Origin: Patescibacteria group bacterium
GTDB lineage: Bacteria; Patescibacteriota; Minisyncoccia; Minisyncoccales; UBA5738
NCBI GenBank assembly: GCA_022710775.1
Contig: JAKLGH010000001.1
Coordinates: forward strand, 201,746-265,745
Direction: 5' to 3'
DNA: 64,000 nucleotides
Part shown: in pieces, positions 46,268 to 63,975 of the stretch
Layout: the number at the start of each line of letters is the position of its first letter
How positions within the stretch are numbered: the first letter of the stretch is position 1
Notes under the pieces: generated by a model
Database searches by the model: none
What the model saw: only the letters and a program-made list of their open reading frames with translations
What the model was told of the DNA's origin: nothing
Translations under genes and position numbers: made by a program

Positions 46268-46591
46268 TCAAATTAGAAAGCGGTCCGCTTTAAACCGCAA
46301 ATAGCGCGAAAAGACCCAGCCGGCAACATGGCAGAAATTTGTAGATCGCACCATAGAATTACAGAGTCCCGGTCTCTGGAACGCCGTTAATTTGGTTGTA
46401 GTCAGTTTATCTAATTTAGTATGTAAAACCCAATTACAATAAAATCTTAATGTTTTGTATCGATTAGATCCGTCTAAATCCAATATTTTTCGAATTCGAA
46501 CTAATAAATAAACCACTTCATTCCTTTGAGTAAGTTTCGATTTATTTTCTAAAAAAACTTTCAGATCGTTTATGAAATTGTTTTTATTCAT
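46268..46591 (-). pseudogene. 5' fragment of an AT-rich island gene fused to unrelated sequence
   Basis: The first ~70 codons are AT-rich and protein-like (MNKNNFINDLKVFLENKSKL...). The last ~35 codons lie in GC-richer DNA left of about 46380 and read as an arbitrary extension. Confidence 0.4.
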
Positions 46592-46599
46592 AAAGAAAT

Positions 46600-47706
46600 T
46601 TATTTCCCAGATTTAGTACGGTTATCTTGCCTGCATAACATTTGGCAATTCTCTGCGATTGTTTTTCCGCCTTCATGCCAAGGCGTTATGTGATCAGCTT
46701 CCATTTCTTCAATTTCCCATTTCTTTTTCTTATTTTCACCTTTGCAATGCGGACAAATTCCTTTTTGCCTCTCATACGCTTCCCGCTTCATCTTGTCGGT
46801 AAAAGCGCGGATATTCAAAAACTTTTCATTTCTAGTCAAGACATACTCATAAATGCCGGATTTTTTGGAAACATCTTCATCCTGCATCAATTCGGTTATT
46901 TCCTTTTCCAGTTTTTTTGAATCAAACTTTTTGTTTTTGAATTGGTTATACAATACGCCCCACGGTACATTACACATTTCCCTGCGATAATTTGGAAAAA
47001 CCTCTCGCACCCAAGAAATTACATCTTGAAAATAATCCCATAATTCATTAGCGTTTTTATTATGTTGGTGTTTAGCCATATAATCTTCAATTCTGCCATC
47101 ATTGATCCACGAAAGCGCAGTTTCTAAGTATTCTTGACGAACTGTATCCCCGCTAACTAATTGACCTCCGTCATTTGCAAGCAAATAAGCAACACAGTTT
47201 CTTTTACTAAATTTTAACTTGGCATCAGAAAGCCACTGACCAGTGTAAACAGCGTTGCGAATTTCTTGCGCATTTACTTTTTCCCCGTAAGTATTTATAA
47301 CCGTAAACCATTCAATTCGTTCCTTATCAGTTCCTTCGCAAAGATAAATCATCAGTTCGTAATCCAAAATTTTATCCTGTTCCTCTTTGGTCAAATTATG
47401 GAAAAAGCGGTTATTTAGAGAAAAATCGCCATTCACATATTGCCCAATGCTGATGGTGCGCTGTTGTCCGTCCAAAACTTCATAGCCACCATCTTCTCTA
47501 ATCATCCAATACATCACATTCAACGGAAAACCTTTTTTAACGGTTTCTATAACAGCATCACGTTGTTTTTCTTTGTACACAAATTCACGCTGATATTTTG
47601 GGCGAATATCAAGTTTTCCGCCATAAGCTACAACACCTTCTTCCGCGCTATCTTTGTAGCCATCAATAACTTTTCGGATTTTAATTTTTTGTAAATCTAT
47701 TTTCAT
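46600..47706 (-). CDS. DUF262 (ParB-like NTPase/nuclease) protein with C-terminal HNH endonuclease domain
   Basis: IRPKYQREFVY ... VLDGQQRTISI (DUF262 DGQQR motif). C-terminus CPHC...ADHITPWHEGGKT..NCQMLCRQDNRTK (HNH). Confidence 0.8.
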   Translation of the reverse strand: MKIDLQKIKIRKVIDGYKDSAEEGVVAYGGKLDIRPKYQREFVYKEKQRDAVIETVKKGFPLNVMYWMIREDGGYEVLDGQQRTISIGQYVNGDFSLNNRFFHNLTKEEQDKILDYELMIYLCEGTDKERIEWFTVINTYGEKVNAQEIRNAVYTGQWLSDAKLKFSKRNCVAYLLANDGGQLVSGDTVRQEYLETALSWINDGRIEDYMAKHQHNKNANELWDYFQDVISWVREVFPNYRREMCNVPWGVLYNQFKNKKFDSKKLEKEITELMQDEDVSKKSGIYEYVLTRNEKFLNIRAFTDKMKREAYERQKGICPHCKGENKKKKWEIEEMEADHITPWHEGGKTIAENCQMLCRQDNRTKSGK

Positions 47707-47707
47707 A

Positions 47708-48742
47708 TTATTTTTTCTTTCTTATTAATAAACGCCGAAACAATAATTTTCCATTAATAGTGAAGTCTTTGTCACCATTTTTACCTGTATATCTATCTAA
47801 CCCAATAATTTCAAACTGATCGGGGTTGTGTTTATCCAGAAAAGTTATTGGCACTCCCATCACCCCGTTGTAATCCCTCGGAATATCAATAAATCTGTTT
47901 ACATTGATGGCATTATAGTTATCATATTTTGAATATTCTTTTGTAGAGTACTTTTTATACAAAGTAAATTCAGTATGACGCTTGGAAACATAAAGATTTG
48001 TATACCAATTAACACTACCCATACTAAAATATTTCACACCATTTACAATTTTTTTTCTTGACTCTGTTGGAATGTCATAATCCATTGGGACTTGAAACCA
48101 TTTTGTGCCACCGTTATCGTACCCAAGCCAAACTTCATTGTCTTTTATTAAAGGAAAAAATTCTTTATAAATAATTGCTCCCTGTTGTCCCAAAATTAAA
48201 AATTTCTTTTTATACTCAATTAGCTGAGCTACATATTCTCGAAACAGAGAAAAGGGAGGGTTGGTTACGACGATGTCAGCTTGTTTAAGTAATTCTATAC
48301 ATTCATCACTTCTAAAATCACCATTACCTTTTAAAGGTGTGGCTGTGTTTTTATTATGTTTTAATAAATGCTCCACGTCATCAAGATTTATAGCGCCATC
48401 TTTGTCTGCATCCGGTACTTCTGTTATTTCTATTTTAAACGGCTCTTTTCCTGATGGCTTCAGCCCTTCTACTTCAAACAATGGCAACTGTCCGCCGACA
48501 ATCGGTGATTTTACATAACTTGTTGTGATGAGCCTTTTTAATTTAAGCGCATTAAAATTAGAAGCGAAGTATTTAAAAAAATTGCTCTCAAATGGATCGT
48601 CGCAATTACAATAAACCACCTTGTCCCGAAACTGTTCCTTATAATGTTTTAGTTCTTTTTCAATATCAACAAGCTGAGTATAAAACTCATCTTTTCCGGC
48701 ACCCTTCGCTCTGTGTAAATTTCTATTTAAAGATTTAGCCAT
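47708..48742 (-). CDS. EcoRI-family N6-adenine DNA methyltransferase
   Basis: KDEFYTQLVDIEKELKHYKEQFRDKVVYCNCDDP N-terminus typical of the family. Catalytic NPPF in IVVTNPPFSLF. Confidence 0.7.
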   Translation of the reverse strand: MAKSLNRNLHRAKGAGKDEFYTQLVDIEKELKHYKEQFRDKVVYCNCDDPFESNFFKYFASNFNALKLKRLITTSYVKSPIVGGQLPLFEVEGLKPSGKEPFKIEITEVPDADKDGAINLDDVEHLLKHNKNTATPLKGNGDFRSDECIELLKQADIVVTNPPFSLFREYVAQLIEYKKKFLILGQQGAIIYKEFFPLIKDNEVWLGYDNGGTKWFQVPMDYDIPTESRKKIVNGVKYFSMGSVNWYTNLYVSKRHTEFTLYKKYSTKEYSKYDNYNAINVNRFIDIPRDYNGVMGVPITFLDKHNPDQFEIIGLDRYTGKNGDKDFTINGKLLFRRLLIRKKK

Positions 48743-49395: not shown

Positions 49396-49413
49396 GGCTC
49401 CGGTGGTAGGATT
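49396..49413. repeat. att-type direct repeat (copy of tRNA-Asn 3' end), distal junction
   Basis: GGCTCCGGTGGTAGGATT is identical to 63902-63919. Confidence 0.8.
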
Positions 49414-49946: not shown

Positions 49947-50459
49947 TTATTTCTGAAACAAATGTTTATTCTTAAAAATCAAATAGATCATACTTAATAT
50001 TAGAGCAATGCCAACCGGCGGAATGGCGTATAAAACCAAATTGGCAATGTTAAACAAAACAGAGATGCTAGTATTAAGAACTTTGAAAAGCCAGGGAACG
50101 AGAAAGGCATACGAAATCCACATTAAAAATATCCAGAGTATCGCCTTTATCGCATTATAGAGCTCCCACATGCCAAATGCCTTAACAACGATATCATGAA
50201 GCACTTTATAAAATTTGATCAGGTACAGAAAAAAACCAAGCGTGCAAAAAGTAAAAGCACTATAAAACACCCTGACGAAAATACTTGGCGCGGATAATGG
50301 GCTGATATTTTGCCATTGAAATTTAATACCAAAAGCAAAATGCCAGAGCAGAAGTACAAGAACTAAAATAATATAAGTTATTCCAGAACTTACTATCTCT
50401 TTTGTGTTTTTTATTATTACTTTTTTATACCAATCACTACTTTTCATTTTATTATTCAA
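49947..50459 (-). CDS. four-TM membrane protein, gene 4 of the unknown operon
   Basis: Four long hydrophobic segments; 4-nt overlap with the upstream gene. Confidence 0.6.
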   Translation of the reverse strand: MNNKMKSSDWYKKVIIKNTKEIVSSGITYIILVLVLLLWHFAFGIKFQWQNISPLSAPSIFVRVFYSAFTFCTLGFFLYLIKFYKVLHDIVVKAFGMWELYNAIKAILWIFLMWISYAFLVPWLFKVLNTSISVLFNIANLVLYAIPPVGIALILSMIYLIFKNKHLFQK

Positions 50460-51811
50460 TAACCCAGTTTAAATTTATCAAAAATTTCTAATTGTTTTAA
50501 AAAATCCTTATGCGAATCAGAACTATTACCCTCCTTAAGTTTTTTGCTTAGCACTGGCATTGTTTTAAGGTATCCGTCAAAACCTAACAAATTAAGGTAT
50601 TCATCCACAAAAATAATAAGTTTTTCAGCTGCCATCTTAACAAACCTATACGGCTCCAGAAAATACTCGTTATCTAATTTGTAATGCCCCCATTCGCCTA
50701 ATTTACTTCCGTTTTCTTTAGATAAGGCCACGATATGGTTAAAAAAATCTTGCGGAACTCTAATCATATTAAAATAGAAATTATCGTTTCTATTATCAAA
50801 ACGCAGCGCCTTAAGTCTTGCCCTGTGAATAATAAGGTCTCTAGGACTATACGTTAAATTGATCAAAGAGGAATTTTGGGAAAGGAAATCTTTAATTTTA
50901 CCGTTCTCTTGGTACAAGAGCTTCATGAAATCTTTTTGTCTATCCTTTCTTAATCCGATTCTTTCAAATTGATCAAATTTAATTTGATAGCGGTATTTGG
51001 ATATCCAAGCAAGTGAATCAAAAACCCCAGTGAATAGGGTGATTAGGTAATTAAAGTGGTAGATAGTAGCGTCCTGGGTATCATTATTAACACCGGAATA
51101 GTAATTTATACCTATCTCATCTATTGCTGTAAGCAGATCAATAATTCTGTCTCCAAGCGAAGCTGTAATATCCATTAAATCATCTCCCCGAGGAATATGC
51201 TTTTGCCCATAGACAATGATTGACCAAACTTTTTGGTAATTTTTAACTTTTGTCTTCAAAGAATAAAGATACCAAAGACCTCTATTAACGTAATAATTGG
51301 GAGCAATTAAAAATTTATTTTTATTTTTACAATATAAATCAATAAAAATTATCGCCTCTTCTGGGCTCAAGATACTTTGCGCTGGCAACTCCGGGAAGCC
51401 ATTCCTTGCCCAGTTTAGCCGGCTTAACAACTTTTTTCTCTCTGTAACTAAGATAACTTTTTTATCCTCTGACACCCCTAACAATGTCTTAAGAATAAAA
51501 GTTAAAATAAAGTCGTCATACTTGATATCAAGAGACTCGGCAATTATTTTTATGTCGGATATTTTATATCCGAACATGGTGCTTTCTTTGTAGCCATGTA
51601 ATTTGTCGCCTAATTTATCAATGACAATCCCGCTAATATCATTTTTGTCACTGAGAGACAATTGAACTACTGTATGCGTCTTTGAGCTGCCCAAAGAAAC
51701 AAACTCAAAAAGTTCATTATCAAAATAATTAAGCAGCCTCTTAGCGACATCAGATTTTAAAGAGTCTGAATCTAGTAAAATTCTTAGTGGCTTTTTGTAT
51801 TTATTATCCAT
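50456..51811 (-). CDS. hypothetical protein with HEPN-like Rx4H motif, gene 3 of the unknown operon
   Basis: 451 aa. C-terminal half has YSPRDLIIHRARL (R-x4-H). The N-terminus RILLDSDSL ... VILVTERKKL is faintly PIN-like. Both calls are tentative. Confidence 0.55.
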   Translation of the reverse strand: MDNKYKKPLRILLDSDSLKSDVAKRLLNYFDNELFEFVSLGSSKTHTVVQLSLSDKNDISGIVIDKLGDKLHGYKESTMFGYKISDIKIIAESLDIKYDDFILTFILKTLLGVSEDKKVILVTERKKLLSRLNWARNGFPELPAQSILSPEEAIIFIDLYCKNKNKFLIAPNYYVNRGLWYLYSLKTKVKNYQKVWSIIVYGQKHIPRGDDLMDITASLGDRIIDLLTAIDEIGINYYSGVNNDTQDATIYHFNYLITLFTGVFDSLAWISKYRYQIKFDQFERIGLRKDRQKDFMKLLYQENGKIKDFLSQNSSLINLTYSPRDLIIHRARLKALRFDNRNDNFYFNMIRVPQDFFNHIVALSKENGSKLGEWGHYKLDNEYFLEPYRFVKMAAEKLIIFVDEYLNLLGFDGYLKTMPVLSKKLKEGNSSDSHKDFLKQLEIFDKFKLGY

Positions 51812-51814
51812 ACC

Positions 51815-52918
51815 TTATGATTTTTTAATTATCTGCTCAACTATCTGGTCAAACGTCATAGTCCCATCACTGTAGTTCTTTAACGCTTCGTCTAACTCCG
51901 CATTGGAGAGGAAGCCATTGTAGACAAGCTTAGGAGCTAAAGCAAAACTGTTCTTTTTTGCGACTACAGCCAGCACCTGCTCATTAAATTCATGTACTAA
52001 ATAATCCCTAAAATCATTCAGATATTTTTTATAACGAATCACTGTATAAATATCATAATACTGAGTCATCTGGGGACCGTTCGTATCCATTAAATAATTA
52101 AAAATAGTTCTGACTTTTGCGCGCGCAATGTCATACTTACGCTTTTCACTTGCGTAAGTTGTATACCGCGCTCGTTCTAAGGGCAAATAATGACTCTCAA
52201 CCTCAACACCGCTTCGAGACTGATCAATACCAAACTGCCAAAACTTTTTAATAGGTCTTAAATATTTAAAACTCTGCGCGGTTGGTGATTTTTTGGCGAA
52301 AGGATATTGGCAATATATAACCTCGTCTTTTTCAAATTCAAACGAACGAGGCTTTTCTTTTTCTTCCCAATTTTTAAATCGTTTTTCTTTAAGATAAGTA
52401 AAAAGACTATATTTTTGGCTATAACCAATAATCTCACCTCGCTTACGTCTAACTTTCATCGTTTCATTTCGAAGATACTCAAAATCAACAGGAAAATGGT
52501 ACTTCTTATTTTTAATATCTATTTCGTCCCACTCAATCATGTAAAACTCGTCTCCCGTAATCAATAACTGCCAAGCAATATCCTCTAAGAAACCGCCCAC
52601 TGAATCCCCCTGGCCATATAAGTCATCCCTATAGAACGAATGCTCGTCAGTAAAATACCTCTCAAGGTCTTGCTTAAGGGCTGGGTCATCGCATTCAATA
52701 CCGAAATAATTTCTCTCATGCGTAACATAGCCAGGCCTATCAGGGACTGGCACATCCCTAAGTGGAAAAAGTGCATATCGAATTGCGTCAACTTCTATGC
52801 TTAACTCCATTCCATTTCTTGATGCCATTTCCAGTTGATCATATCCCTTAATGTACCCGAGTAATGGATCATCAAAAACATATCCTTTTTCTCTTTGTTT
52901 GTAAGGTCGTCGTCTCAT
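51815..52918 (-). CDS. hypothetical protein, gene 2 of the unknown operon
   Basis: 367 aa, soluble, no motif recognised; 3-nt gap to gene 3. Confidence 0.55.
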   Translation of the reverse strand: MRRRPYKQREKGYVFDDPLLGYIKGYDQLEMASRNGMELSIEVDAIRYALFPLRDVPVPDRPGYVTHERNYFGIECDDPALKQDLERYFTDEHSFYRDDLYGQGDSVGGFLEDIAWQLLITGDEFYMIEWDEIDIKNKKYHFPVDFEYLRNETMKVRRKRGEIIGYSQKYSLFTYLKEKRFKNWEEKEKPRSFEFEKDEVIYCQYPFAKKSPTAQSFKYLRPIKKFWQFGIDQSRSGVEVESHYLPLERARYTTYASEKRKYDIARAKVRTIFNYLMDTNGPQMTQYYDIYTVIRYKKYLNDFRDYLVHEFNEQVLAVVAKKNSFALAPKLVYNGFLSNAELDEALKNYSDGTMTFDQIVEQIIKKS

Positions 52919-55395
52919 ATTTTTTTACCTTGAATTTTTTTAAGGGTTTCGACAAACTGCCGGACGGCTTCTCTCTTCTTTGCCCACTCAACAAATGCTT
53001 CGGCACACTCCTCCTCTGGCTGATATGCTCGATAACTTAATTCGCGTATGAATCTGCTTGGATGATTAGCTACTTCTTGTAACCCCGAATAAAACCGAAC
53101 ATCGTCATAAGTCTTTGGCAATTGATCTATTTTCCACAAAATTTGGCCGAACCAATGATGGTAGCGAGTTGTCTCCCAATTTATAAGTTTGAGTGTAAGG
53201 TCAAGACCGCCGACGTCCTTCGGTTTTGACAGAACCTCCATGGCCTTAATGAATTGACCTGGCTGATATGCCGCCCCGATCGTCTGCACGTACTCAATAA
53301 GCAAATGGTAATTTTGCCGGAATTCGCACACCAGAAACACGAAACCCCCGAGAATAAGGCTGAGACGGTTGCGGTACATGATATTGTCGACATTCTTCTC
53401 ATCAGCATTGATGACCGGTAACATTAGCGTGAGTAGGCCAGCCAAAACCTTAAACAGTTTCTCACAATTCTCAATGACTGATGGGAAAAGCATCTTTTCT
53501 AGTTCTTCCCAAAATTCCGAATCGACCAGGATTTGCTTTGGAAGAAATGGCAGATATACTCCAGCTCCAGCGATCTTTGCACCATATTCGTCAGCCAATG
53601 CAACCTTGTCGATATAGAGCAACCGACTGATCCATTCGAAGCGAGCCTTAATAAATATCGCAAGTTCTTTGTGTTTTCCTTTCTGATAGAGGTCTTTGAG
53701 GATTATATTATGATGTGTAATCAACTTTTCTAAAAATTTATCGAGGTATTGCTTCTCCTTTGCCCGTGCATCGTCAAGCGTTTCTTTTTCAAGACGAATT
53801 TGCGGCGTTATGACGCGACCCTCACACTGAACTTCAAGATAGAGGCGATCCCAATAGTCAAGAACCTGGTTATAGAAAACTCCGGGTAGATCGAGCCTCG
53901 CCAACTCTTCGCGTGTGTGCGCAAGCTGTCCGTTTGCATCTACTAGTGATTTTATAATCTCCTGATACTTGGTATAGTCAAAACCATCGACGAGGGTTAG
54001 CCCAATCGCAAAATAAGCATTGAGATATGCGCCAAGCTCGTCTTCGGTCTGGACTTTCGCATAGAGCGCGAAAAAACCATCGAGATACTTTTCGAACGCA
54101 TCAGTCTCCTGATTTTCGTAAAGACCGGCAACTGTTTTTTGATAACGACCGTGCCCGTCCTTTTCGTAATCACCGGCGAGTGCGGTCTGGTAAAAATCAA
54201 TAACGTACTTGAGCAAATGAGTATCCTGCGGCGCTGTTCCAACGCGAGACTCCACAGCTTTAACAATATCAAAAACCCTGTCCTCAAACCAAAGATAATC
54301 CGGGCTACCGATGCGCAGAGGTCCTTTTCCCTGAAGTTCAAAATTGAGCTTCAGAGTTAGCGTCGACATACTATTCGCTTTAACCTCCACCTGCGTTTGT
54401 GGAAACCACCAACCGCGTTCTCTGTCGATATGTTTTTTTCGCTTGGCATACTCAGTGATCAAATTTGCAAGTACCATCGGCGTATAAATCACATCGTTCC
54501 AATTCTCCGCATGCCAGAGGTCTTCGAAAAGAGTCTTGAGTAGAGAAAGATGGTTCTGCGTTCTCATGCGTGAAGTTTGTATGATACTCCAACTCTTATA
54601 TGAATACCGGCTTCGGTCAGAGGCAAGTCGCATGCCTTCCTTCATGTCCGACTGTAACCTCTCAAAGAGATTCTTTGGCTTTATAGTGAAAATATAATGG
54701 TTCTTAAAAACGATAATCCCGAGTAAACAGATAGCTACCAAAATAACGACGGCAATAAAGCTAACCGACGACGGAAGTGTTAGAAGTTGAATACGTAGCA
54801 AGACTGCAATCGCAAAGATATCAGTGAATACAAGAAGTTTGAAAAAGAAATTACCGACGGTTTCCTGGTTAACGTAATCAGATACGGCAGATGAGTACTT
54901 ATCAGTAGTGAGCTGGAGGCCGACTGCATATAGAGCAAATAAAAGTCCCAGAATAGCGGAGATTGCGCCGATAGAAATCTCGAGCACAAGCTTTAAAAAC
55001 TCACTGTCCGGGAGAGTAAAAAAATCAAAGTGAGCTATAAATGCTTGGAACCAGCCAGTTTGAATGTGAGATAGTGACGTTGCGAGACCTTCAACACCCC
55101 AATCGGCAGAGATTACTACTACGAGTGATATTATTAGTACTACTATCGTACCCATAGAATTCCGGATAATTTGCATTGGTATCGTATATTCCGTTTTCCT
55201 ACGTTCCTGATTTCTGTACAGAATCCTTAATGATTCCCTTCGTCTCTGAAAAATGCTGTAAAAGAAACCGGTAAATGTGCCCAAGACGAGAATAAGCTTA
55301 TTTGGTTTTTTGTCTGCATCATAAGAAAAAGAAGAAACCTTTGGTTTCCATAAGATTCGTCGAAGAAAAAATTGTACTGCTCTTAAAAATTTCAT
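52915..55395 (-). CDS. large membrane protein (5 TM N-terminus plus ~590-aa helical domain), gene 1 of the unknown operon
   Basis: 826 aa. TM segments within residues 33-232. LQLTTDKYSSAVSDYV after TM3 is reminiscent of DUF2254-type proteins (weak). 4-nt overlap with gene 2. Confidence 0.6.
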   Translation of the reverse strand: MKFLRAVQFFLRRILWKPKVSSFSYDADKKPNKLILVLGTFTGFFYSIFQRRRESLRILYRNQERRKTEYTIPMQIIRNSMGTIVVLIISLVVVISADWGVEGLATSLSHIQTGWFQAFIAHFDFFTLPDSEFLKLVLEISIGAISAILGLLFALYAVGLQLTTDKYSSAVSDYVNQETVGNFFFKLLVFTDIFAIAVLLRIQLLTLPSSVSFIAVVILVAICLLGIIVFKNHYIFTIKPKNLFERLQSDMKEGMRLASDRSRYSYKSWSIIQTSRMRTQNHLSLLKTLFEDLWHAENWNDVIYTPMVLANLITEYAKRKKHIDRERGWWFPQTQVEVKANSMSTLTLKLNFELQGKGPLRIGSPDYLWFEDRVFDIVKAVESRVGTAPQDTHLLKYVIDFYQTALAGDYEKDGHGRYQKTVAGLYENQETDAFEKYLDGFFALYAKVQTEDELGAYLNAYFAIGLTLVDGFDYTKYQEIIKSLVDANGQLAHTREELARLDLPGVFYNQVLDYWDRLYLEVQCEGRVITPQIRLEKETLDDARAKEKQYLDKFLEKLITHHNIILKDLYQKGKHKELAIFIKARFEWISRLLYIDKVALADEYGAKIAGAGVYLPFLPKQILVDSEFWEELEKMLFPSVIENCEKLFKVLAGLLTLMLPVINADEKNVDNIMYRNRLSLILGGFVFLVCEFRQNYHLLIEYVQTIGAAYQPGQFIKAMEVLSKPKDVGGLDLTLKLINWETTRYHHWFGQILWKIDQLPKTYDDVRFYSGLQEVANHPSRFIRELSYRAYQPEEECAEAFVEWAKKREAVRQFVETLKKIQGKKI

Positions 55396-55503
55396 ATCCC
55401 TTCTTGCTTATTAAGTAATCCACAATCTACCTACTTCCATTTTCGTAAGATTTTCGGTATACTATAAATATATCACTTTGAGTTAAAAACATCAATCACG
55501 CTT

Positions 55504-56967
55504 ATGGCCATTCCGATAACAAAAAGACAAAAAGAAGTCCTAGATTTCATAAAGAAGTTTATAAAGAAGAAAAAATACCCTCCAACACTGGAGGAAATAT
55601 GTGTCGGGCTTAAACTCTCGGCCGTTTCCACTGTTCACCAGCATATAGAAGCGCTGGCCGAAAAAGGCTATTTAAAAAAAGTTGGAAATAACGCCAGAGC
55701 GATTGATATTAATGAACCAGAGGCAATGGTTAGGGTCCCACTCCTCGGAACAATCGCGGCCGGAGAACCTATAGAAGCGGTCCAACAAAAAGAATTTATT
55801 GCTGTGCCTAAAACAAAATTACCTGTAAACGGTGAAATTTATGCTCTTCGTGTTATTGGAAACAGCATGATAGACGAAAATATTAATGAGGGAGATGTCG
55901 TTCTGATAAAACATCAAAGCACTGCTGATAACGGCCAAAAGATTGTGGCTTTAATTGATAATCACGAAGCGACTTTAAAGAAATTCTATAAGAGCCGTGG
56001 ACTTGTTCGACTTGAGCCGGCAAATAAAAACTACAAACCAATTATCATCCAAAAAGATCAGGAGCTCTCAATACAGGGTATTGTTTTGGATGTTATAAAA
56101 AGCGGTGGGGAGATAAAAGAAAATCCAACACTATTTAATGACGAAATAGAAAAGGACGATAATTTACCAATAAACAAAATTATTTGCGGCGACGCATTGC
56201 ACCACTTGCAAAAACTGCCAGATCAATCAATCGACTTGATAATAGCTGACCCTCCCTACAACCTATCAAAAGGAAATCATATCCATTTTAATAACAACGG
56301 CTTAAAAGGCTTCGGCGGTGAGTGGAATAAGGTGATGGAAAATTGGGACAATCTTCCCTTGGTTGATTATTTCAAATTTACTGCTAAGTGGCTAAAAGAA
56401 GTTAAAAGAATCTTAAAACCTACAGGTTCAATATGGGTTTTTGGAACTTATCACAATACTGGAATTATTAATTTGATATTCCAGACGCTTGGGATTGAAA
56501 TAATTAACGAAGTGGTTTGGTACAAGCGCAATGCCTTCCCAAATCTTGCCGGCCGGCGTTTTACTGCGAGCCATGAAACCCTGCTATGGGGACACGCCGG
56601 GGAGAAAAGAAAATATTATTTCGACTATAAGCAATCGAAAGAATTCCATGATCCGTCCGACCTATTAAAATCTCAGGGCAAGCAGATGAGAACGGTTTGG
56701 GATATCCCGAACAATAAAGAATCGAGGGAGATAGAATTCGGCAAACATCCAACCCAAAAACCTCTGAGCGTTTGTAAAAGAATTATTTCCTTATGTTCAA
56801 AGCCAGATGATATTGTCTTGTCTCCTTTTGCTGGAGCTGGGAGCGAATGTTTAGCCGCAAAAGAATTGGGGAGAAAATATATTGGCATAGAGCTCGATGA
56901 AAAATACGTGGATATTGCAAACAAAAGACTGAAATACTCCAAAAATCAACAACCTTTATTTAACTAG
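55504..56967 (+). CDS. LexA-like repressor (wHTH + S24 peptidase) fused to a beta-class N4/N6 DNA methyltransferase
   Basis: Residues 1-205 form a complete LexA: PPTLEEI...STVHQHIEAL, cleavage site IAAGEPI, Ser in GNSM, Lys in ATLKKF. Residues 215-487 carry IIADPPYN (motif IV), then SPFAGAGSE (motif I). Confidence 0.8.
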   Translation: MAIPITKRQKEVLDFIKKFIKKKKYPPTLEEICVGLKLSAVSTVHQHIEALAEKGYLKKVGNNARAIDINEPEAMVRVPLLGTIAAGEPIEAVQQKEFIAVPKTKLPVNGEIYALRVIGNSMIDENINEGDVVLIKHQSTADNGQKIVALIDNHEATLKKFYKSRGLVRLEPANKNYKPIIIQKDQELSIQGIVLDVIKSGGEIKENPTLFNDEIEKDDNLPINKIICGDALHHLQKLPDQSIDLIIADPPYNLSKGNHIHFNNNGLKGFGGEWNKVMENWDNLPLVDYFKFTAKWLKEVKRILKPTGSIWVFGTYHNTGIINLIFQTLGIEIINEVVWYKRNAFPNLAGRRFTASHETLLWGHAGEKRKYYFDYKQSKEFHDPSDLLKSQGKQMRTVWDIPNNKESREIEFGKHPTQKPLSVCKRIISLCSKPDDIVLSPFAGAGSECLAAKELGRKYIGIELDEKYVDIANKRLKYSKNQQPLFN

Positions 56968-56969
56968 AT

Positions 56970-57776
56970 ATGAATCGTTTATTACCTTTTATAAAATGGA
57001 GTGGCAGTAAAGGATCGCAAGCAAAAGCGATATCCGCTTATTTGCCCGACAACTTTAATACGTACTATGAGCCGTTCTTGGGAAGCGGTGCAGTTTTAGG
57101 GTGGCTAAGACCTGAGAATGCAGTATGCGCTGATATAAATAAGGCATTGATCGATCTTTGGCGGCTTATCCAAAAAGACCCGAATAAAGTTATAAACGAA
57201 TATAAAAATAACTGGGAGAAGCTTCAAAAAAGCTACAAATTTTTTTACAAAATCCGCGACAAATTTAATAAAGAAAAATCTCCTCATCACTTATTATTTT
57301 TATCTAGAACCTGCGTTAATGGATTGATAAGATACAACAAACAGGGTGAGTTTAATAATTCGTTACACTATACCAGAAAAGGAATTCACCCGGATCGTTT
57401 GAAAAAAATTATATTCGATTGGTCCGATAGGATACAAAATTGTAATTTTATGGCTCAAGACTATAGGCGGGCGACAAAAAAAGCACGAAAGGGAGATTTC
57501 GTGTATCTGGACCCGCCCTATTTCAATACAAAAGGACGCTATTTTGGTACGATTAATTTTGCCGAGTTCGTGGAATATTTAAGTGATCTCAATAAACGCG
57601 GTATAAAATACGCGCTTTCTTACGACGGACTACGCGCAGAGAATAGCTACATCGTAGAAATTCCAAAAGAATTATACAAAAGACATCTGCTTCTACCTTC
57701 CGGAAACTCAACATTTAAAAAAGTTCAAGATAAAAAGGTAGAAAAAGTCTTCGAATCTTTATATTTAAATTACTAG
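56970..57776 (+). CDS. Dam-family (alpha-class) N6-adenine DNA methyltransferase
   Basis: FIKWSGSK, YYEPFLGSGAV (motif I), VYLDPPY (motif IV); 2-nt gap after the fusion gene. Confidence 0.85.
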   Translation: MNRLLPFIKWSGSKGSQAKAISAYLPDNFNTYYEPFLGSGAVLGWLRPENAVCADINKALIDLWRLIQKDPNKVINEYKNNWEKLQKSYKFFYKIRDKFNKEKSPHHLLFLSRTCVNGLIRYNKQGEFNNSLHYTRKGIHPDRLKKIIFDWSDRIQNCNFMAQDYRRATKKARKGDFVYLDPPYFNTKGRYFGTINFAEFVEYLSDLNKRGIKYALSYDGLRAENSYIVEIPKELYKRHLLLPSGNSTFKKVQDKKVEKVFESLYLNY

Positions 57777-59773
57777 GATTCAATTTTTACCTCTAATATT
57801 TTGGGGTATTTTGTAGCTAACTTTTTGATAACTTGTCCGAAGTGTTTTGCTTGCTCCGTATGCATTACATGGATAATGGTTTTATAGCTGCCGCTTACAA
57901 ATTCAACGCCAATCGCAACATCAGCTTTACATTTTTTTAAAGCCAGTTTTAGCTCTTCTACTTTTTGGAATCGAAACGCAACCGCTGACAAAATCTTCAG
58001 GTCTCTATCGCGGTTTTCGTTTTTATAAGACTGCCATTGCTGGCCATTACTTCTTATCGATATTGGATTACTTGATAAGAGCTGATGAACATACTTAACC
58101 AATCTAATGCCCACCTTATCTTCTAACCGCGCCTGAACGTCTTTTGACTCGATTGGGACTAAATATGCTCCGGAGCTAATCTGTACGAGATGATCTGGTC
58201 TTTTTGAATCAGCTCCAGAAACTCTCGGCAATGAGGTCCAGCGAAATTCAATCTTGTTTTGAAAATCAATTATATTTATTCCGCTCCAATCGCCGCCAGG
58301 AGGATTACAAAGCGATTCGTAAATCCCTTCTGAAATCGCGTTGGAAAACAGCAGGTGCAAAACTGAATCAACATCGTGCTCACCAAAGGTAGGACTAACC
58401 GCAGCGGCCGCTAATGGAATCTTTTTAATTTTCTCCTCCGGTTTATTTGTAACAAATCCAACGTTTTTTATCTTTTTCGAGGTAATACTATCAATGATAA
58501 TTCCATCGCTTAAATTAACAATTGCCTCCCATAAACCATTTATTGAAGCTAGTCTGTGCATGTCTTTAGCTAATTGAGCCCAAACGGTAGGATGGGCCGG
58601 ACCATAAACCACTGAGAGTAGATCGGCGTGATCCATTCCAAAAATCATGCGCGCTAAAGGAACTAAACCTCTATCGGGCCGAGAGTCATCGCCCCTAGGC
58701 TTGAAGCCGGCAATCCAGACACATAATAAATGCTTGTCTGATTTTGACAGCCATTCTAAAAACTCTTCACTGACTCTATTCTTGTATAACTTTTTAATGT
58801 CGGCGGCTAAAGCGACCCGTTTATTTTTGGGAATAAGACAAATAGGAATCTCCTTTGATCCGATAGCTACCGCTTTATTTTTATTAGCTAATTTTAATAA
58901 TCCTAAAAATGTTCTCGTGAGAGATTTAATTCCCAACTTTTTATTCCACGGAAATTTACGTTCTACGAGCCAATCGGCTTTTTGCGTACCAGTATTTTTT
59001 GAATAAAGTTCTTTCCACTCTGCGGCACTTAATGTGTCTTTTTTCTTCCTGTTGTCTGACAAAGTGCCAATTAAATTTAAAAGTTTTGCTTCAAGTGCTT
59101 TCTGTGAATTACTGGTACTGCTTTCTAAAATTATCGACTTAACCAGTTCGGATGCCTCTTTAAATCCAAAACTCTTAATAAATTCGGCTGGGATGCTTCC
59201 GCTTAACGAGGGACTCGGAATATAGACCGGCATCGAGATGGTGCCGCTTTCGGGGCCGAGCGTTGAATAAGCAAATGGTACTAAGGGATTTGGAAACCTG
59301 GCCGCTTTTAATGATCTATCTGATCCAAGTTCATATCCTCCCAATTCTGTAAAATACAGATAAGGAATTCCCGCGTAAGCCAATGCCAGAGCCCGGCCTG
59401 TTCTTTGCCAGGCATTATTACCAGCCGGCAAAGCTCCGCTGAATTCTAATGACAGGATCGGTATCTCTATATTTTTATCTTCTTCAAATTTCGTGATAAT
59501 CGCATCGGTGGCCTCTCTTACTGGTGCGCCACGAGCTGCCAAATAATCGGTAATCGAAAAACTCCACCTGCCATAACCGGGAAATAACTGTATTAAAAAA
59601 TCTCTTGAGCTGGACTCAAGTTTGTAAATAGGAGCGTAAGCAGGGCCATCTTCAACTATTTTGCAATCTTTGTATTCTCCGTTAAGAGATACTGCTAAAA
59701 GCTTAAGCGCATTTTCACACTCCAAAATATTGTCTCCATGTATTCGGAGTTTAAATACAGGCTTGTTTGCCAT
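57773..59773 (-). CDS. putative restriction endonuclease (C-terminal PD-ExK)
   Basis: 666 aa, convergent, overlaps the Dam gene stop by 4 nt. KRPDHLVQISSGAYLVPIESKD fits PD-x14-ExK. Confidence 0.6.
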   Translation of the reverse strand: MANKPVFKLRIHGDNILECENALKLLAVSLNGEYKDCKIVEDGPAYAPIYKLESSSRDFLIQLFPGYGRWSFSITDYLAARGAPVREATDAIITKFEEDKNIEIPILSLEFSGALPAGNNAWQRTGRALALAYAGIPYLYFTELGGYELGSDRSLKAARFPNPLVPFAYSTLGPESGTISMPVYIPSPSLSGSIPAEFIKSFGFKEASELVKSIILESSTSNSQKALEAKLLNLIGTLSDNRKKKDTLSAAEWKELYSKNTGTQKADWLVERKFPWNKKLGIKSLTRTFLGLLKLANKNKAVAIGSKEIPICLIPKNKRVALAADIKKLYKNRVSEEFLEWLSKSDKHLLCVWIAGFKPRGDDSRPDRGLVPLARMIFGMDHADLLSVVYGPAHPTVWAQLAKDMHRLASINGLWEAIVNLSDGIIIDSITSKKIKNVGFVTNKPEEKIKKIPLAAAAVSPTFGEHDVDSVLHLLFSNAISEGIYESLCNPPGGDWSGINIIDFQNKIEFRWTSLPRVSGADSKRPDHLVQISSGAYLVPIESKDVQARLEDKVGIRLVKYVHQLLSSNPISIRSNGQQWQSYKNENRDRDLKILSAVAFRFQKVEELKLALKKCKADVAIGVEFVSGSYKTIIHVMHTEQAKHFGQVIKKLATKYPKILEVKIES

Positions 59774-59890
59774 AAAAATAAAGTAGCTTTTCTACTTAAA
59801 GGGTATCACGAAATAAGATTTTTTTCTACCGCTGATTTCCGTCAACTTCTTGTCAGCTTTTGTCAGAAAAGTTTTCCACAGACGGACCTG

Positions 59891-61457: not shown

Positions 61458-62330
61458 ATGAACAAAACTATGACTAAAAACGCCAAAATTTACGCCGTAA
61501 TCGCCGTTGTAGCGGTTCTTGGGGCCGGTTACGGAGTTTATCACCTCTTAAGCAGCAATGCACCGCGTGGGGCCGAAACAACAGATCTGGCCTCCATTAC
61601 GAACTTCGACCAGTGCGTCGAAGCGGGATTCGCAATTATGAAATCCAATCCCGAACAATGCATGACTTCCGACGGCCGGATTTTCGTCAACGAAAAACCG
61701 CCGGCTCAAAGCGAACTGGATAAAGCCGAGCAAGCCATCAGAACGTTCATGGGGGAACCGAACTTGGAATTGAAATATACCGGCCAGAATAATCATCCCT
61801 CTAACTTCGCGATCCTAAGCAACGTCAAACAAAACGACGGTGGGTTTACGGCCGACAATCCTAAAGAATGGGATCGGCCGGTTTACATCTTCCAGCAGAC
61901 GGATTATATCAACGACCGCTGCGAAGTTTATCAATACCAGGTAACGCAAAAAACGAATCAGGTCGTGGAAATCGGAATCGTCTACCCGATCGAACGCAGC
62001 GCCACCGTACCGGGAAATTGTCCTGGCAACGGCTCGCTGGACTGGCCTTTAATGAGCAAAGACGAAATCGAACAGGCCGCGTTCGCGTATCTCGGCCATG
62101 ATCCAGAACATACCAAATTCATGATAAGGTCGGACATTCAGCTACAATATATCCCAAGTAAACCTGGAGCAGAAAATCCGGCGGCCAACGAATGGCGCTG
62201 GGAGGATAAAAGCTACAAACTTCCGGAGGGGCTCATGGGCGATCCCTGGCCTTATCCGACCATGAGAATAATAATGTCGGCCGGTGGCAAACTGGTTTAC
62301 TACCTAAACACCACCGAACTCTTTGACTAA
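61458..62330 (+). CDS. membrane-anchored/secreted hypothetical protein
   Basis: N-terminal TM AKIYAVIAVVAVLGAGYGVYHLL. Confidence 0.6.
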   Translation: MNKTMTKNAKIYAVIAVVAVLGAGYGVYHLLSSNAPRGAETTDLASITNFDQCVEAGFAIMKSNPEQCMTSDGRIFVNEKPPAQSELDKAEQAIRTFMGEPNLELKYTGQNNHPSNFAILSNVKQNDGGFTADNPKEWDRPVYIFQQTDYINDRCEVYQYQVTQKTNQVVEIGIVYPIERSATVPGNCPGNGSLDWPLMSKDEIEQAAFAYLGHDPEHTKFMIRSDIQLQYIPSKPGAENPAANEWRWEDKSYKLPEGLMGDPWPYPTMRIIMSAGGKLVYYLNTTELFD

Positions 62331-63915
62331 TATGAACCAGGAAGTACAACCCAGACTCAAGTACTTCCTCTACGCTCGAAAATCTTCGGAACAGGAAGAC
62401 AGACAGGTCCTTTCAATCGATTCGCAAAAGAGCGAGCTGGAAGCGCTTGCAAAAAGAGAAAAGCTCCTCATCGTGGAGCGCCTGGAAGAATCATATTCGG
62501 CCAAAGCGCCGGGACGCGAAATTTTCAACGCGATGATCAAACGGATAGAGAAAGGCGAAGCCGAGGGCATCATCGCCTGGCACCCAAACCGCCTTTCCCG
62601 AAATTCCGTGGACACCGGCTACCTGGTTTATCTCATGGACCAGAACCGGCTTTTGGAAATCCACACGCCCGGCCAGACATTCAAAAGCACTCCCAATGAT
62701 AAATTTTTACTTAACCTACTTTGCAGTCAGGCCAAGCTGGAAAACGACAACAAAGGCATAGACGTTAAACGCGGACTAAGGCGTAAGGTAGAAATGGGAT
62801 GGCATCCCGGACCGGCGCCCGTAGGCTACAAAAATACGCCGGACAAAGAAAAAGGATTCCGCACCATTCGCAAAGACCCGCGCATGTTTCCGATTATCCG
62901 GAAAATGTTCGACATGCTTTTAAGCGGCGACTTTACCGCTCCGCGGGTGCATGAAATCGCGGTGCAAAAATGGGGACTGAAAAATTTGGCGCGTAGCGGC
63001 TACTACCGCCTGCTTTATAATCCCTTTTATTACGGCTGGTTCGAATGGCCCAGAGGCTCGGGCAACTGGCATAAAGGCAAGCACGAACCGATGATCACGC
63101 GCGACGAATACGACAGGGTTCAAAAAATGCTTGGCCACGGCAGTAAACCCAAACCGGAAACGCACACCTTCGCTTATACCGGCATGATCCGCTGTGGCGA
63201 GTGCGGCTGTATGGTAACGGCCGAAAACAAGATCAAGAAAAACAAAAACGGCAACGTCCATCACTACACGTATTATCACTGCACCAAACGCAAAGGCCCG
63301 TGCAGCCAGAAGTGCATCGAAGTTAACGAACTGGAAAAGCAAATCAAAAAGACGCTGGCCAGAGTCAGACCGCCGGAAGAATTCCACGGCTGGGCCATGA
63401 AGTGGCTGAGAAACGAAAACGAACGCGAGGCCGGCGACAGAAACGCCATACTTTCCAATCAACAGAAAAATTACGAGGCCTGCGTGAGAAAACTGGACGC
63501 TTTGATCGACATGAGAGCGTCGGGAGAAATCAGCGAAGAAGAATTCAAGAAAAAGAAATCGGAAATCGGCCAGGAAAAAATCAGACTGCACGAATTATTG
63601 AACGACACGGACAACCGCGTGGACAGCTGGCTGCAGACGGCCGACAACGTCTTGACCTTCGCCGGCGACGCCAATGAAGCGTTCACCGAAAGGGGTCAAC
63701 ACGCCCGAAAAGTGATTCTCTCCGCCTTAGGTTCGAACCTCATCTTAAAAGACAAAAACATAAGAATTGACACGGATTCCGCGCTTCTACCGATGATTCT
63801 TGTCTCATCCGGGTCAAATCGAAAAAACGGACGGTTAGAACCCGCCGAAACAGGCTCTAATAAAGAGAAAAGCCGAGCTTTTAACTCGGCAAATCCCATG
63901 TGGCTCCGGTGGTAG
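62323..63915 (+). CDS. large serine recombinase (integrase)
   Basis: Resolvase catalytic domain YARKSSEQEDRQVLSIDSQ ... GIIAWHPNRLSRN, recombinase domain, zinc ribbon CGECGC...YYHCTKRKGPC, coiled-coil tail. The last 14 nt lie inside the att repeat/tRNA. Confidence 0.9.
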   Translation: MTNMNQEVQPRLKYFLYARKSSEQEDRQVLSIDSQKSELEALAKREKLLIVERLEESYSAKAPGREIFNAMIKRIEKGEAEGIIAWHPNRLSRNSVDTGYLVYLMDQNRLLEIHTPGQTFKSTPNDKFLLNLLCSQAKLENDNKGIDVKRGLRRKVEMGWHPGPAPVGYKNTPDKEKGFRTIRKDPRMFPIIRKMFDMLLSGDFTAPRVHEIAVQKWGLKNLARSGYYRLLYNPFYYGWFEWPRGSGNWHKGKHEPMITRDEYDRVQKMLGHGSKPKPETHTFAYTGMIRCGECGCMVTAENKIKKNKNGNVHHYTYYHCTKRKGPCSQKCIEVNELEKQIKKTLARVRPPEEFHGWAMKWLRNENEREAGDRNAILSNQQKNYEACVRKLDALIDMRASGEISEEEFKKKKSEIGQEKIRLHELLNDTDNRVDSWLQTADNVLTFAGDANEAFTERGQHARKVILSALGSNLILKDKNIRIDTDSALLPMILVSSGSNRKNGRLEPAETGSNKEKSRAFNSANPMWLRW

Positions 63916-63975
63916 GATTCGAACCTACAACCTTCTCGTTAACAGCGAGCCGCGCTACCGTTGCGCCACACCGGA
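63901..63975 (-). tRNA. tRNA-Asn (anticodon GTT), CCA encoded
   Basis: Folded by hand. Acceptor TCCGGTG/CACCGGA, D stem GCGC/GCGC, anticodon stem CTCG/CGAG with loop CTGTTAA, T arm GTAGG-TTCGAAT-CCTAC, discriminator G, CCA. Confidence 0.9.
63902..63919. repeat. att-type direct repeat, tRNA-proximal junction
   Basis: GGCTCCGGTGGTAGGATT is identical to 49396-49413. Confidence 0.8.

Follow-up and report, generated by a model that had tools for sequence, protein, structure and literature searches.

We describe LexA-M1, a protein encoded in a 64,000-nt stretch of a Patescibacteria genome (contig JAKLGH010000001.1; the whole stretch is referred to below as the window, and coordinates count from its first letter), in which a complete LexA module is joined to a DNA methyltransferase (MTase) at the head of a type IIS restriction-modification (R-M) cassette. 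The most likely mechanism, to which we give a probability of roughly 0.6, is that the protein represses its own methylase operon and that this repression is lifted by RecA-stimulated self-cleavage. Computation established that the two parts are fused, that all three enzymes of the cassette are intact, that the cleavage residues are invariant, that the operator is conserved and linked to the winged helix-turn-helix (wHTH) domain, that the linker is flexible and that the cassette is mobile.

The fusion gene is a single, uninterrupted open reading frame (ORF) of 487 codons. An earlier note on this DNA had read residues 1-205 as a complete LexA running in frame into a beta-class MTase, and this description was borne out by Pfam, which identified a LexA DNA-binding domain and an S24 peptidase domain (Table 1), and by the NCBIfam lexA equivalog TIGR00498, which the fusion matched with 182.3 bits against a cut-off of 110.95. 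The sequence motifs that the note had quoted were all found where it had placed them: IAAGEPI at residues 84-90, GNSM at 119-122, ATLKKF at 156-161, DPPY at 249-252 and FAGAGSE at 442-448. Pfam N6_N4_Mtase (PF01555) matched residues 243-474 with 188 bits over profile positions 1-221 of 221, and the MTase part, which is intact, belongs to the beta class because motif IV (DPPY) precedes motif I (FxGxG). Solved LexA structures aligned end to end with the LexA part (PDB 3k2z, E=1.6e-32; E. coli LexA, 1jhh, 5e-28), and the wHTH also aligned to the N-terminal domain structure 1lea. The elements AAGEP, G-x-SM and T-[LV]-K-[KR] were in register with the solved repressors; Ser121, Lys159 and the Ala86-Gly87 bond of the fusion match S119, K156 and A84-G85 of E. 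coli LexA, and the Thermotoga maritima LexA is in register as well. Judged by its wHTH, its S24 domain with Ser-Lys dyad and Ala-Gly bond, and its equivalog score, LexA-M1 belongs by sequence to the LexA family.

In the AlphaFold2 (AF2) model (predicted local distance difference test, pLDDT, 78; predicted template modelling score, pTM, 0.53) the LexA and MTase parts were confidently folded and the linker at residues 201-213 was disordered. With two folded modules on a disordered linker, cleavage at Ala86-Gly87 would merely untether the wHTH from an autonomous S24-MTase. Foldseek searches with the MTase part returned CcrM (6pbd, 3.5e-24), followed by M.BceJIV, M.MboIIA and M.RsrI, and the other part returned LexA structures. 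The possibility that the MTase is a CcrM orthologue, or an orphan cell-cycle methylase, was rejected: the match to NF050803 covered profile positions 2-251 of 350 and, at 227 bits, fell short of the cut-off of 830, and the gene lies within an R-M cassette with an intact restriction endonuclease (REase).

Although the earlier note had treated the fusion as a one-off, it is a member of a large family. The 205-residue LexA module was used as query in an exhaustive HMMER search against 1.84 billion cluster representatives. Its approximately 45 nearest relatives were almost all 390-890 amino acids long with the module at the N-terminus, and ordinary LexAs of ~200 amino acids dominated only at identities of ~47% or less to the window module. 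Every one of the 45 long relatives combined LexA_DNA_bind and S24 with a C-terminal DNA MTase, and the partners were diverse, comprising N6_N4 (31), Eco57I/N6_Mtase/MmeI-type, that is gamma-type (7), D12 (5) and C5 (2) enzymes; the genome loci agree with this. Of the 120 best cluster representatives, 100 have the three-domain architecture, the most divergent of them at 47% identity. Ala-Gly, Ser and Lys were invariant across 101 N6_N4 fusions and equally so across 45 more distant ones belonging to four MTase families, which implies selection for cleavage; from these invariant catalytic and cleavage residues we infer that self-cleavage of LexA-M1 would be stimulated by activated RecA (RecA*). 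The fusions abut REases of at least eight unrelated families (TaqI, MvaI/BcnI, BsaWI, NgoFVII-like, Bsp6I, AlwI, MutH/Sau3AI and BsmI), and the head is therefore best seen as a general R-M regulator, in a design that recurs on four MTase families. The family is overwhelmingly found in Patescibacteria, also known as the candidate phyla radiation (CPR), with one metagenome-assembled genome of Omnitrophota besides, and database records name its members merely 'transcriptional repressor LexA' or 'modification methylase'. A phage origin of the fusion was considered and rejected: 50,697 GenBank phage records contained zero fusions, and only one was found among the top IMG/VR matches. The phage records did contain one unfused pair, in the temperate Marinitoga phage MPV1 (locus L177, OZ018341.1, 39444-41699), where a gene for a CI-like S24 repressor lies directly upstream of that for an unfused 519-aa MTase.

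One and the same three-gene cassette was found in unrelated flanks and in three forms, with a full LexA head (the window and loci L008 and L010), with the wHTH only (L014 and L096) or without a head (L015). In the wHTH-only protein P0066 a degenerate remnant of the cleavage strand is still visible. The MTase domains of the three forms are 62-82% identical to one another, that of the window being 72-82% identical to the standalone MTases of the same cassette, and the linker is in frame and of variable length across the family. On this comparison the LexA head is, as far as can be read from sequence, an optional and portable module. The window fusion also appears mosaic. Compared with L022, in which a D12 MTase is paired with an AlwI REase, 78 of 105 promoter positions are identical, the wHTH is 74% and the S24 domain 45% identical, and the MTases are unrelated; compared with L010, which has the same BsmI cassette, the wHTH is 52%, the S24 domain 64% and the MTase 73% identical. 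Promoter, operator and wHTH of the window are thus nearest to L022, and S24 domain and MTase nearest to other BsmI-type cassettes, implying recombination near the wHTH/S24 boundary. Promoter, operator and wHTH travel as one unit. At L040 (5004-9418), the gene for an unfused 197-aa LexA with a TTTCTAT-type operator has those for a double D12 MTase and an AlwI-family REase as neighbours, with a SMODS (CBASS-like) gene adjacent; here the R-M LexA controller may exist as a protein in its own right.

The cassette itself was resolved into three genes, in keeping with the earlier note, which had linked the fusion gene to R-M expression. The second MTase gene, for M2, a D12-class (Dam-family) enzyme methylating adenine at N6 (m6A), starts 2 nt past the M1 stop codon in the same operon, and the gene for a 666-aa REase is convergent with it. 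The REase aligned with the BsmI structure (PDB 9f38) over ~590 residues (residues 9-600, E=6e-92) and matched the PADLOC profile REase_II with 422 bits; no Pfam family matched it. The metal ligands of the two BsmI active sites (PMC11889245), D9, D91, E109, E470 and D528, all align with identical residues, and for this reason the REase looks functional. In addition, the two halves of PADLOC profile PDLC03302, which describes a fused M1-M2 enzyme, match M1 and M2 of the window. The predicted layout is that of a BsmI-type IIS system, with two strand-specific MTases and a monomeric two-site nuclease, and with the fusion gene first. A DpnII/MboI-type system recognising GATC, suggested by the pairing of a D12 with an N6_N4 enzyme, was discarded since the window REase is a BsmI homologue; in the distant relative L007 the fusion is paired with a MutH/Sau3AI-family nuclease. 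Avoidance of GAATGC was also set aside as evidence of specificity, because an apparent two-fold depletion was a composition effect that vanished under order-2 and order-4 Markov models. Across the whole window, under the order-4 model, two palindromes were missing, GTGCAC (0 observed against 9.1 expected) and ACATGT (0 against 6.6), perhaps because they are sites of other R-M systems and are avoided for that reason.

No ORF for a small HTH_3 controller (C) protein was called upstream of the REase gene (59773) in the window. Small C-protein-like HTH_3/HTH_31 genes do lie upstream of the REase gene in L008 (12273-12497) and L096 (5213-5434). C-like gene and LexA or wHTH head occur there in the same BsmI-type cassettes, so the two regulatory layers can coexist.

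The region 55396-55503, which the earlier note had put forward as a candidate regulatory region, contains a conserved direct repeat that resembles an operator and sits at the core promoter. This putative operator directly abuts the -10 hexamer of the M1-M2 promoter (Table 1), and no other exact TTTCG-N6-TTTCG occurs in the 64 kb. A repeat of the form [TG]TTC[GT][GA]T-N4-[TG]TTC[GT][GA]T, with a period of 11, was found upstream of fusion genes of every MTase family; in the relatives a TATAAT or TATACT -10 element follows it directly at the equivalent position, and in many loci a TTGAC -35 element precedes it. When a position weight matrix (PWM) was applied in leave-one-out fashion, the promoter site outscored all other positions in 18 of the 22 loci, which were scanned over their full length of 1.5-21 kb, and in the scored loci the operator always lay at -26 to -64 from the start codon. 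As a held-out check, both wHTH-only loci (L014 and L096) were found to carry the operator at the promoter, masked in L014 by an over-long start call; the operator was absent from the head-less cassette L015. The recognition helix co-varies with the repeat, STAH[FH]H going with TTTC[TG]AT and ST[VI]H[QE]H with [TG]TTCGGT, and this pairing holds across fusions to different MTases and unfused lexA genes. The same type of repeat occurs upstream of SOS-type lexA genes at L094, next to a Y-family polymerase gene, and at L075; a review (PMC7739468) has it, with reference to an SOS study of Patescibacteria, that LexA of this group evolved recognition of direct repeats. A conserved direct repeat that tracks the wHTH argues, in silico, for autoregulation through an operator in the gene's own promoter.

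The PWM scan gave no site above background at the REase promoters or at the window recombinase promoter. Co-regulation of the REase, or of island excision, through a second operator was therefore rejected, and the suggestion of the earlier note that the switch might induce the element has no support. Besides the promoter site, the only above-background operator-like site in the 64 kb was a direct repeat at 46535-46552 (+), TTTCGATTTATTTTCTAA, of the 'STAH[FH]H-type', which scored 21.4 with the PWM, above all shuffles. It lies inside a 107-aa ORF (46268-46591, -) just downstream of a GmrSD/HNH gene, and could have arisen by chance or be bound by another LexA, perhaps that of the host.

The 108-bp intergenic region containing the operator is common to the fusion gene and a divergent four-gene operon (49947-55395, -) encoding an 826-aa DUF2254-like membrane protein and then proteins of 367, 451 and 170 aa without family match. 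A promoter-like site on the - strand runs from 55495 to 55467, such that transcription from it would cross the LexA operator. A conserved divergent operon under the same operator was considered and dropped, given that the window and L007 have only the ~170-aa protein in common there (43% identity).

A further element of the regulatory region resembles a DnaA box (scored as TTATCCACA with at most one mismatch, in either orientation). Of 20 LexA-MTase genes, 17 have such a box at a distance of 45-93 nt upstream, whereas it precedes 2 of 15 standalone lexA genes and occurs in 3.6% of background windows (binomial P ~3e-22 for the fusion set). The loci with a box are the window, L007, L008, L010, L012, L014, L016-L022, L029, L037, L056 and L096. 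Through this box, expression of the methylase may be tied to DnaA and replication.

Taken together, the following mechanism is proposed. A dimer of the fusion, held together by its S24 domains, would place two winged helices on the period-11 repeat abutting its own -10 element and so repress the M1-M2 operon, keeping methylase low and self-limiting. DNA damage, for instance where the REase of the system cuts under-methylated DNA or where repair synthesis leaves unmethylated sites, would produce RecA-ssDNA filaments that stimulate self-cleavage at Ala86-Gly87. The detached wHTH would leave the operator, and its new end, ...IAA, would resemble the -VAA that reportedly serves as a ClpX signal in E. 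coli LexA. The operon would then be derepressed and both strand-specific methylases would rise, the convergent REase remaining unaffected at its own operator-less promoter. Overall, damage would tip the system towards methylation and so protect unmethylated sites arising from repair or self-restriction, which would amount to restriction alleviation hard-wired into a type II system. On entry of the cassette into a new cell, expression would be methylase-first because a naive cell holds no repressor.

Several points weigh against this reading. That the protein binds DNA, represses its operon and is cleaved in a RecA-dependent way, and what follows for the cell, is all deduced from sequence. The likeness to the LexA box of Patescibacteria is drawn at the level of repeat type; the -35 element of the window copy is degenerate, and a simple sigma-70 scan made no call for the + strand promoter. 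The sites from which the PWM was built were initially chosen by eye, a weakness that the leave-one-out and held-out tests address. As the wHTH-only variants show, S24 is not indispensable to the circuit and could serve mainly for dimerisation. Finally, a host LexA that read the same operator would compromise methylase-first establishment.

If the S24 domain were kept for dimerisation alone, LexA-M1 would be an autoregulator with a non-responsive LexA head and no RecA/SOS input. The wHTH-only derivatives of the cassette, which retain the operator and promoter design and would autoregulate without any need of S24, speak for such a protein. We nevertheless consider it unlikely, as the Ala-Gly, Ser and Lys residues are invariant in all 146 sequences, down to ~30% overall identity, conservation extends to the GxIAAGxPI strand and to the counterpart of E. 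coli Glu152, and a pure dimerisation role would leave scissile bond and catalytic dyad unconstrained.

Slightly less likely again is that LexA-M1 serves as the global SOS repressor of the organism, with methylation secondary. The gene lies on a low-GC island of ~14.5 kb at a tRNA-Asn gene, together with a serine recombinase; the cassette occurs elsewhere in unrelated flanks and also head-less; the fused modules form a clade of their own apart from the ~200-aa LexAs; their partners are always R-M methylases beside REases; and the one other above-background operator-like site in the window is within an ORF. These observations outweigh the passing of the TIGR00498 cut-off, the resemblance of the operator type to that of bona fide CPR lexA genes, and the small size of CPR genomes, with no second lexA seen within the 64 kb.

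The circuit might also act as a suicide switch, in which cleavage destabilises or inactivates the methylase, so that an SOS response, for example to phage replication, lowers methylation and the BsmI-like REase kills the cell in the manner of abortive infection. The REase appears intact and independently transcribed, and the system sits among other defence genes. Fragments of cleaved E. coli LexA are protease substrates, and the S24-MTase fragment could be degraded in the same way. We regard this as a long shot. Cleavage would also derepress new synthesis of M1 and of head-less M2, existing methylation is lost by replication only, and the disordered linker, the autonomous MTase fold of the model and the 72-82% identical head-less orthologues suggest that the fragment should stay active.

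The chance that a sequencing or assembly error joined separate lexA and methylase genes is negligible: the hidden stop or frameshift that the earlier note had asked about was not found, 20 contigs from JGI, NCBI, ENA and Logan assemblies, four independent sources, have a called ORF for an identical 487-aa protein (the NCBI one is GCA_035452865.1, Candidatus Paceibacterota), more than 140 cluster representatives share the architecture, and the in-frame linker varies in length across the family.

Compared with known systems, the fusion shares with the LexA SOS repressors of E. coli and T. maritima (TIGR00498) full-length homology, the wHTH, the Ala-Gly bond, the Ser-Lys dyad and an operator at its own promoter. 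It differs from them in being covalently joined to a DNA methylase, in residing on a mobile R-M cassette within a separate MTase-fused clade, and in having apparently a single local operator in place of a demonstrated regulon. As in M.SsoII, M.Ecl18kI, M.EcoRII, M.MspI and M.ScrFIA, an N-terminal DNA-binding region is predicted to act on its own promoter and thereby set R-M expression, and the wHTH-only variants P0066 and P0067 are direct analogues of these autoregulatory MTases. Those enzymes, however, are C5 MTases with a short HTH and no sensor, whereas the fusion head is a complete, predicted self-cleaving LexA that would add a DNA-damage input and occurs on N6_N4, D12, C5 and gamma-type MTases alike; the SsoII-type heads have no sequence homology to it, and the analogy is one of function, not of family membership. 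C proteins and C-REase fusions (Liang and Blumenthal, 2013; PMC3850674) offer a precedent both for a dedicated transcription factor within the unit that times M against R and for the fusion of regulator and enzyme, but C proteins are small HTH_3 activator-repressors of the C/R promoter without a cleavage domain, and the fusion would act on the M promoter.

Descriptions of restriction alleviation are so far confined to type I systems and involve proteolysis or assembly (PMC4231737, PMC12707154). The degradation of HsdR by ClpXP resembles the proposed circuit in shifting the balance away from restriction once unmodified chromosomal sites arise after damage. It is post-translational, depends on a host protease and hits the nuclease, whereas the fusion would act transcriptionally, from within the R-M system, by raising the methylases. 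Lambda CI and SetR of integrative and conjugative elements are likewise self-cleaving S24 repressors that tie the genes of a mobile element to SOS, and phage MPV1 has the unfused order of repressor then MTase; these have HTH_3-type heads controlling lysogeny or transfer, unlike the LexA-type head of the fusion, which is attached to the enzyme it would regulate. The BsmI system (GAATGC; PDB 9f38; PMC11889245) has a homologous REase with both active sites kept and two strand-specific m6A MTases, and the LexA head on M1 is what sets the window apart from it. Literature searches for LexA and methyltransferase in Patescibacteria or CPR found no description of such proteins, and neither R-M reviews of 2013 and 2025 nor a survey of regulator fusions described LexA control of, or fusion to, R-M systems. 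The fusions are an uncharacterised family and not a categorically new mechanism.

Table 1. Features of the LexA-M1 gene, its R-M cassette and the surrounding island, in window coordinates.
Feature	Position	Strand	Details
LexA-M1 methyltransferase fusion gene	55504..56967	+	487 codons/aa, one uninterrupted frame
LexA winged-helix DNA-binding domain	55513..55701	+	residues 4-66; Pfam LexA_DNA_bind PF01726, 64 bits; recognition helix SAVSTVHQHIEAL
S24 self-cleaving peptidase/dimerisation domain	55738..56085	+	residues 79-194; Pfam Peptidase_S24 PF00717, 97 bits
S24 key residues	55759-55764; 55864-55866; 55978-55980	+	Ala86-Gly87 scissile bond; Ser121; Lys159
Disordered variable linker	56101..56166	+	residues 200-221; AF2 pLDDT <50 for residues 201-213; weak conservation in alignment
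Beta-class N6-adenine DNA MTase domain	56167..56943	+	residues 222-480; DPPY at 56248-56259
Putative LexA operator	55441..55458	+	TTTCGTAAGATTTTCGGT; direct repeat TTTCGTA-N4-TTTCGGT, period 11, abuts -10
-10 hexamer of M1-M2 promoter	55458..55463	+	TATACT; read from sequence; -35 degenerate in window copy
DnaA-box-like 9-mer	55416..55424	+	TAATCCACA; one mismatch to TTATCCACA; upstream element of regulatory region
M2, D12-class (Dam-family) m6A MTase	56970..57776	+	268 aa; Pfam PF02086 130 bits; TIGR00571 166 bits
Type IIS restriction endonuclease, BsmI homologue	57773..59773	-	666 aa; convergent with M2
Promoter-like site of REase gene	59818..59845	-	TTGACG-16-AAAAAT; without LexA operator
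Left att-like repeat of island	49396..49413	+	copy of tRNA-Asn 3' end, exact 18 nt, GGCTCCGGTGGTAGGATT
Large serine recombinase, island right end	62323..63915	+	Pfam Resolvase, Recombinase and Zn_ribbon_recom
tRNA-Asn, integration target	63901..63975	-	ARAGORN; right att repeat 63902-63919

Between its two 18-nt tRNA-Asn repeats the island holds the R-M cassette, the four-gene operon without assigned function and the serine recombinase, and the GC content of the cassette region is low. A second defence-type module lies a short way outside the island at 46600-48742 (-) and encodes an EcoRI-like adenine MTase of 344 aa and a GmrSD_N plus HNH nuclease of 368 aa; near it are a GIY-YIG ORF and a very small HTH_3 ORF, and GC is just 34-36% there.

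To our knowledge, type II R-M systems have classically been seen as regulated for establishment only, by C proteins, HTH-MTases or antisense RNA. A self-cleaving LexA within a methylase would link SOS to the type II R-M balance transcriptionally and intrinsically. We suggest, tentatively and with the odds somewhat against it, that LexA-MTase heads represent an unrecognised class of R-M controller, widespread in Patescibacteria and present in at least one Omnitrophota genome. It would be a portable unit of promoter, operator, DnaA-like box and self-cleaving LexA, exchanged among unrelated type II systems, with RecA/SOS and possibly DnaA inputs. The natural series of full head, wHTH only and no head on one cassette makes the hypothesis directly testable in E. 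coli, and the family supplies many new pairs of operator and recognition helix for the question of how LexA reads direct repeats. If the reading is true, lineages whose defence depends largely on R-M would have type II systems with a built-in switch that damage throws towards restriction alleviation (or suicide), which would bear on how cells under repair escape attack by the restriction enzymes they make themselves.

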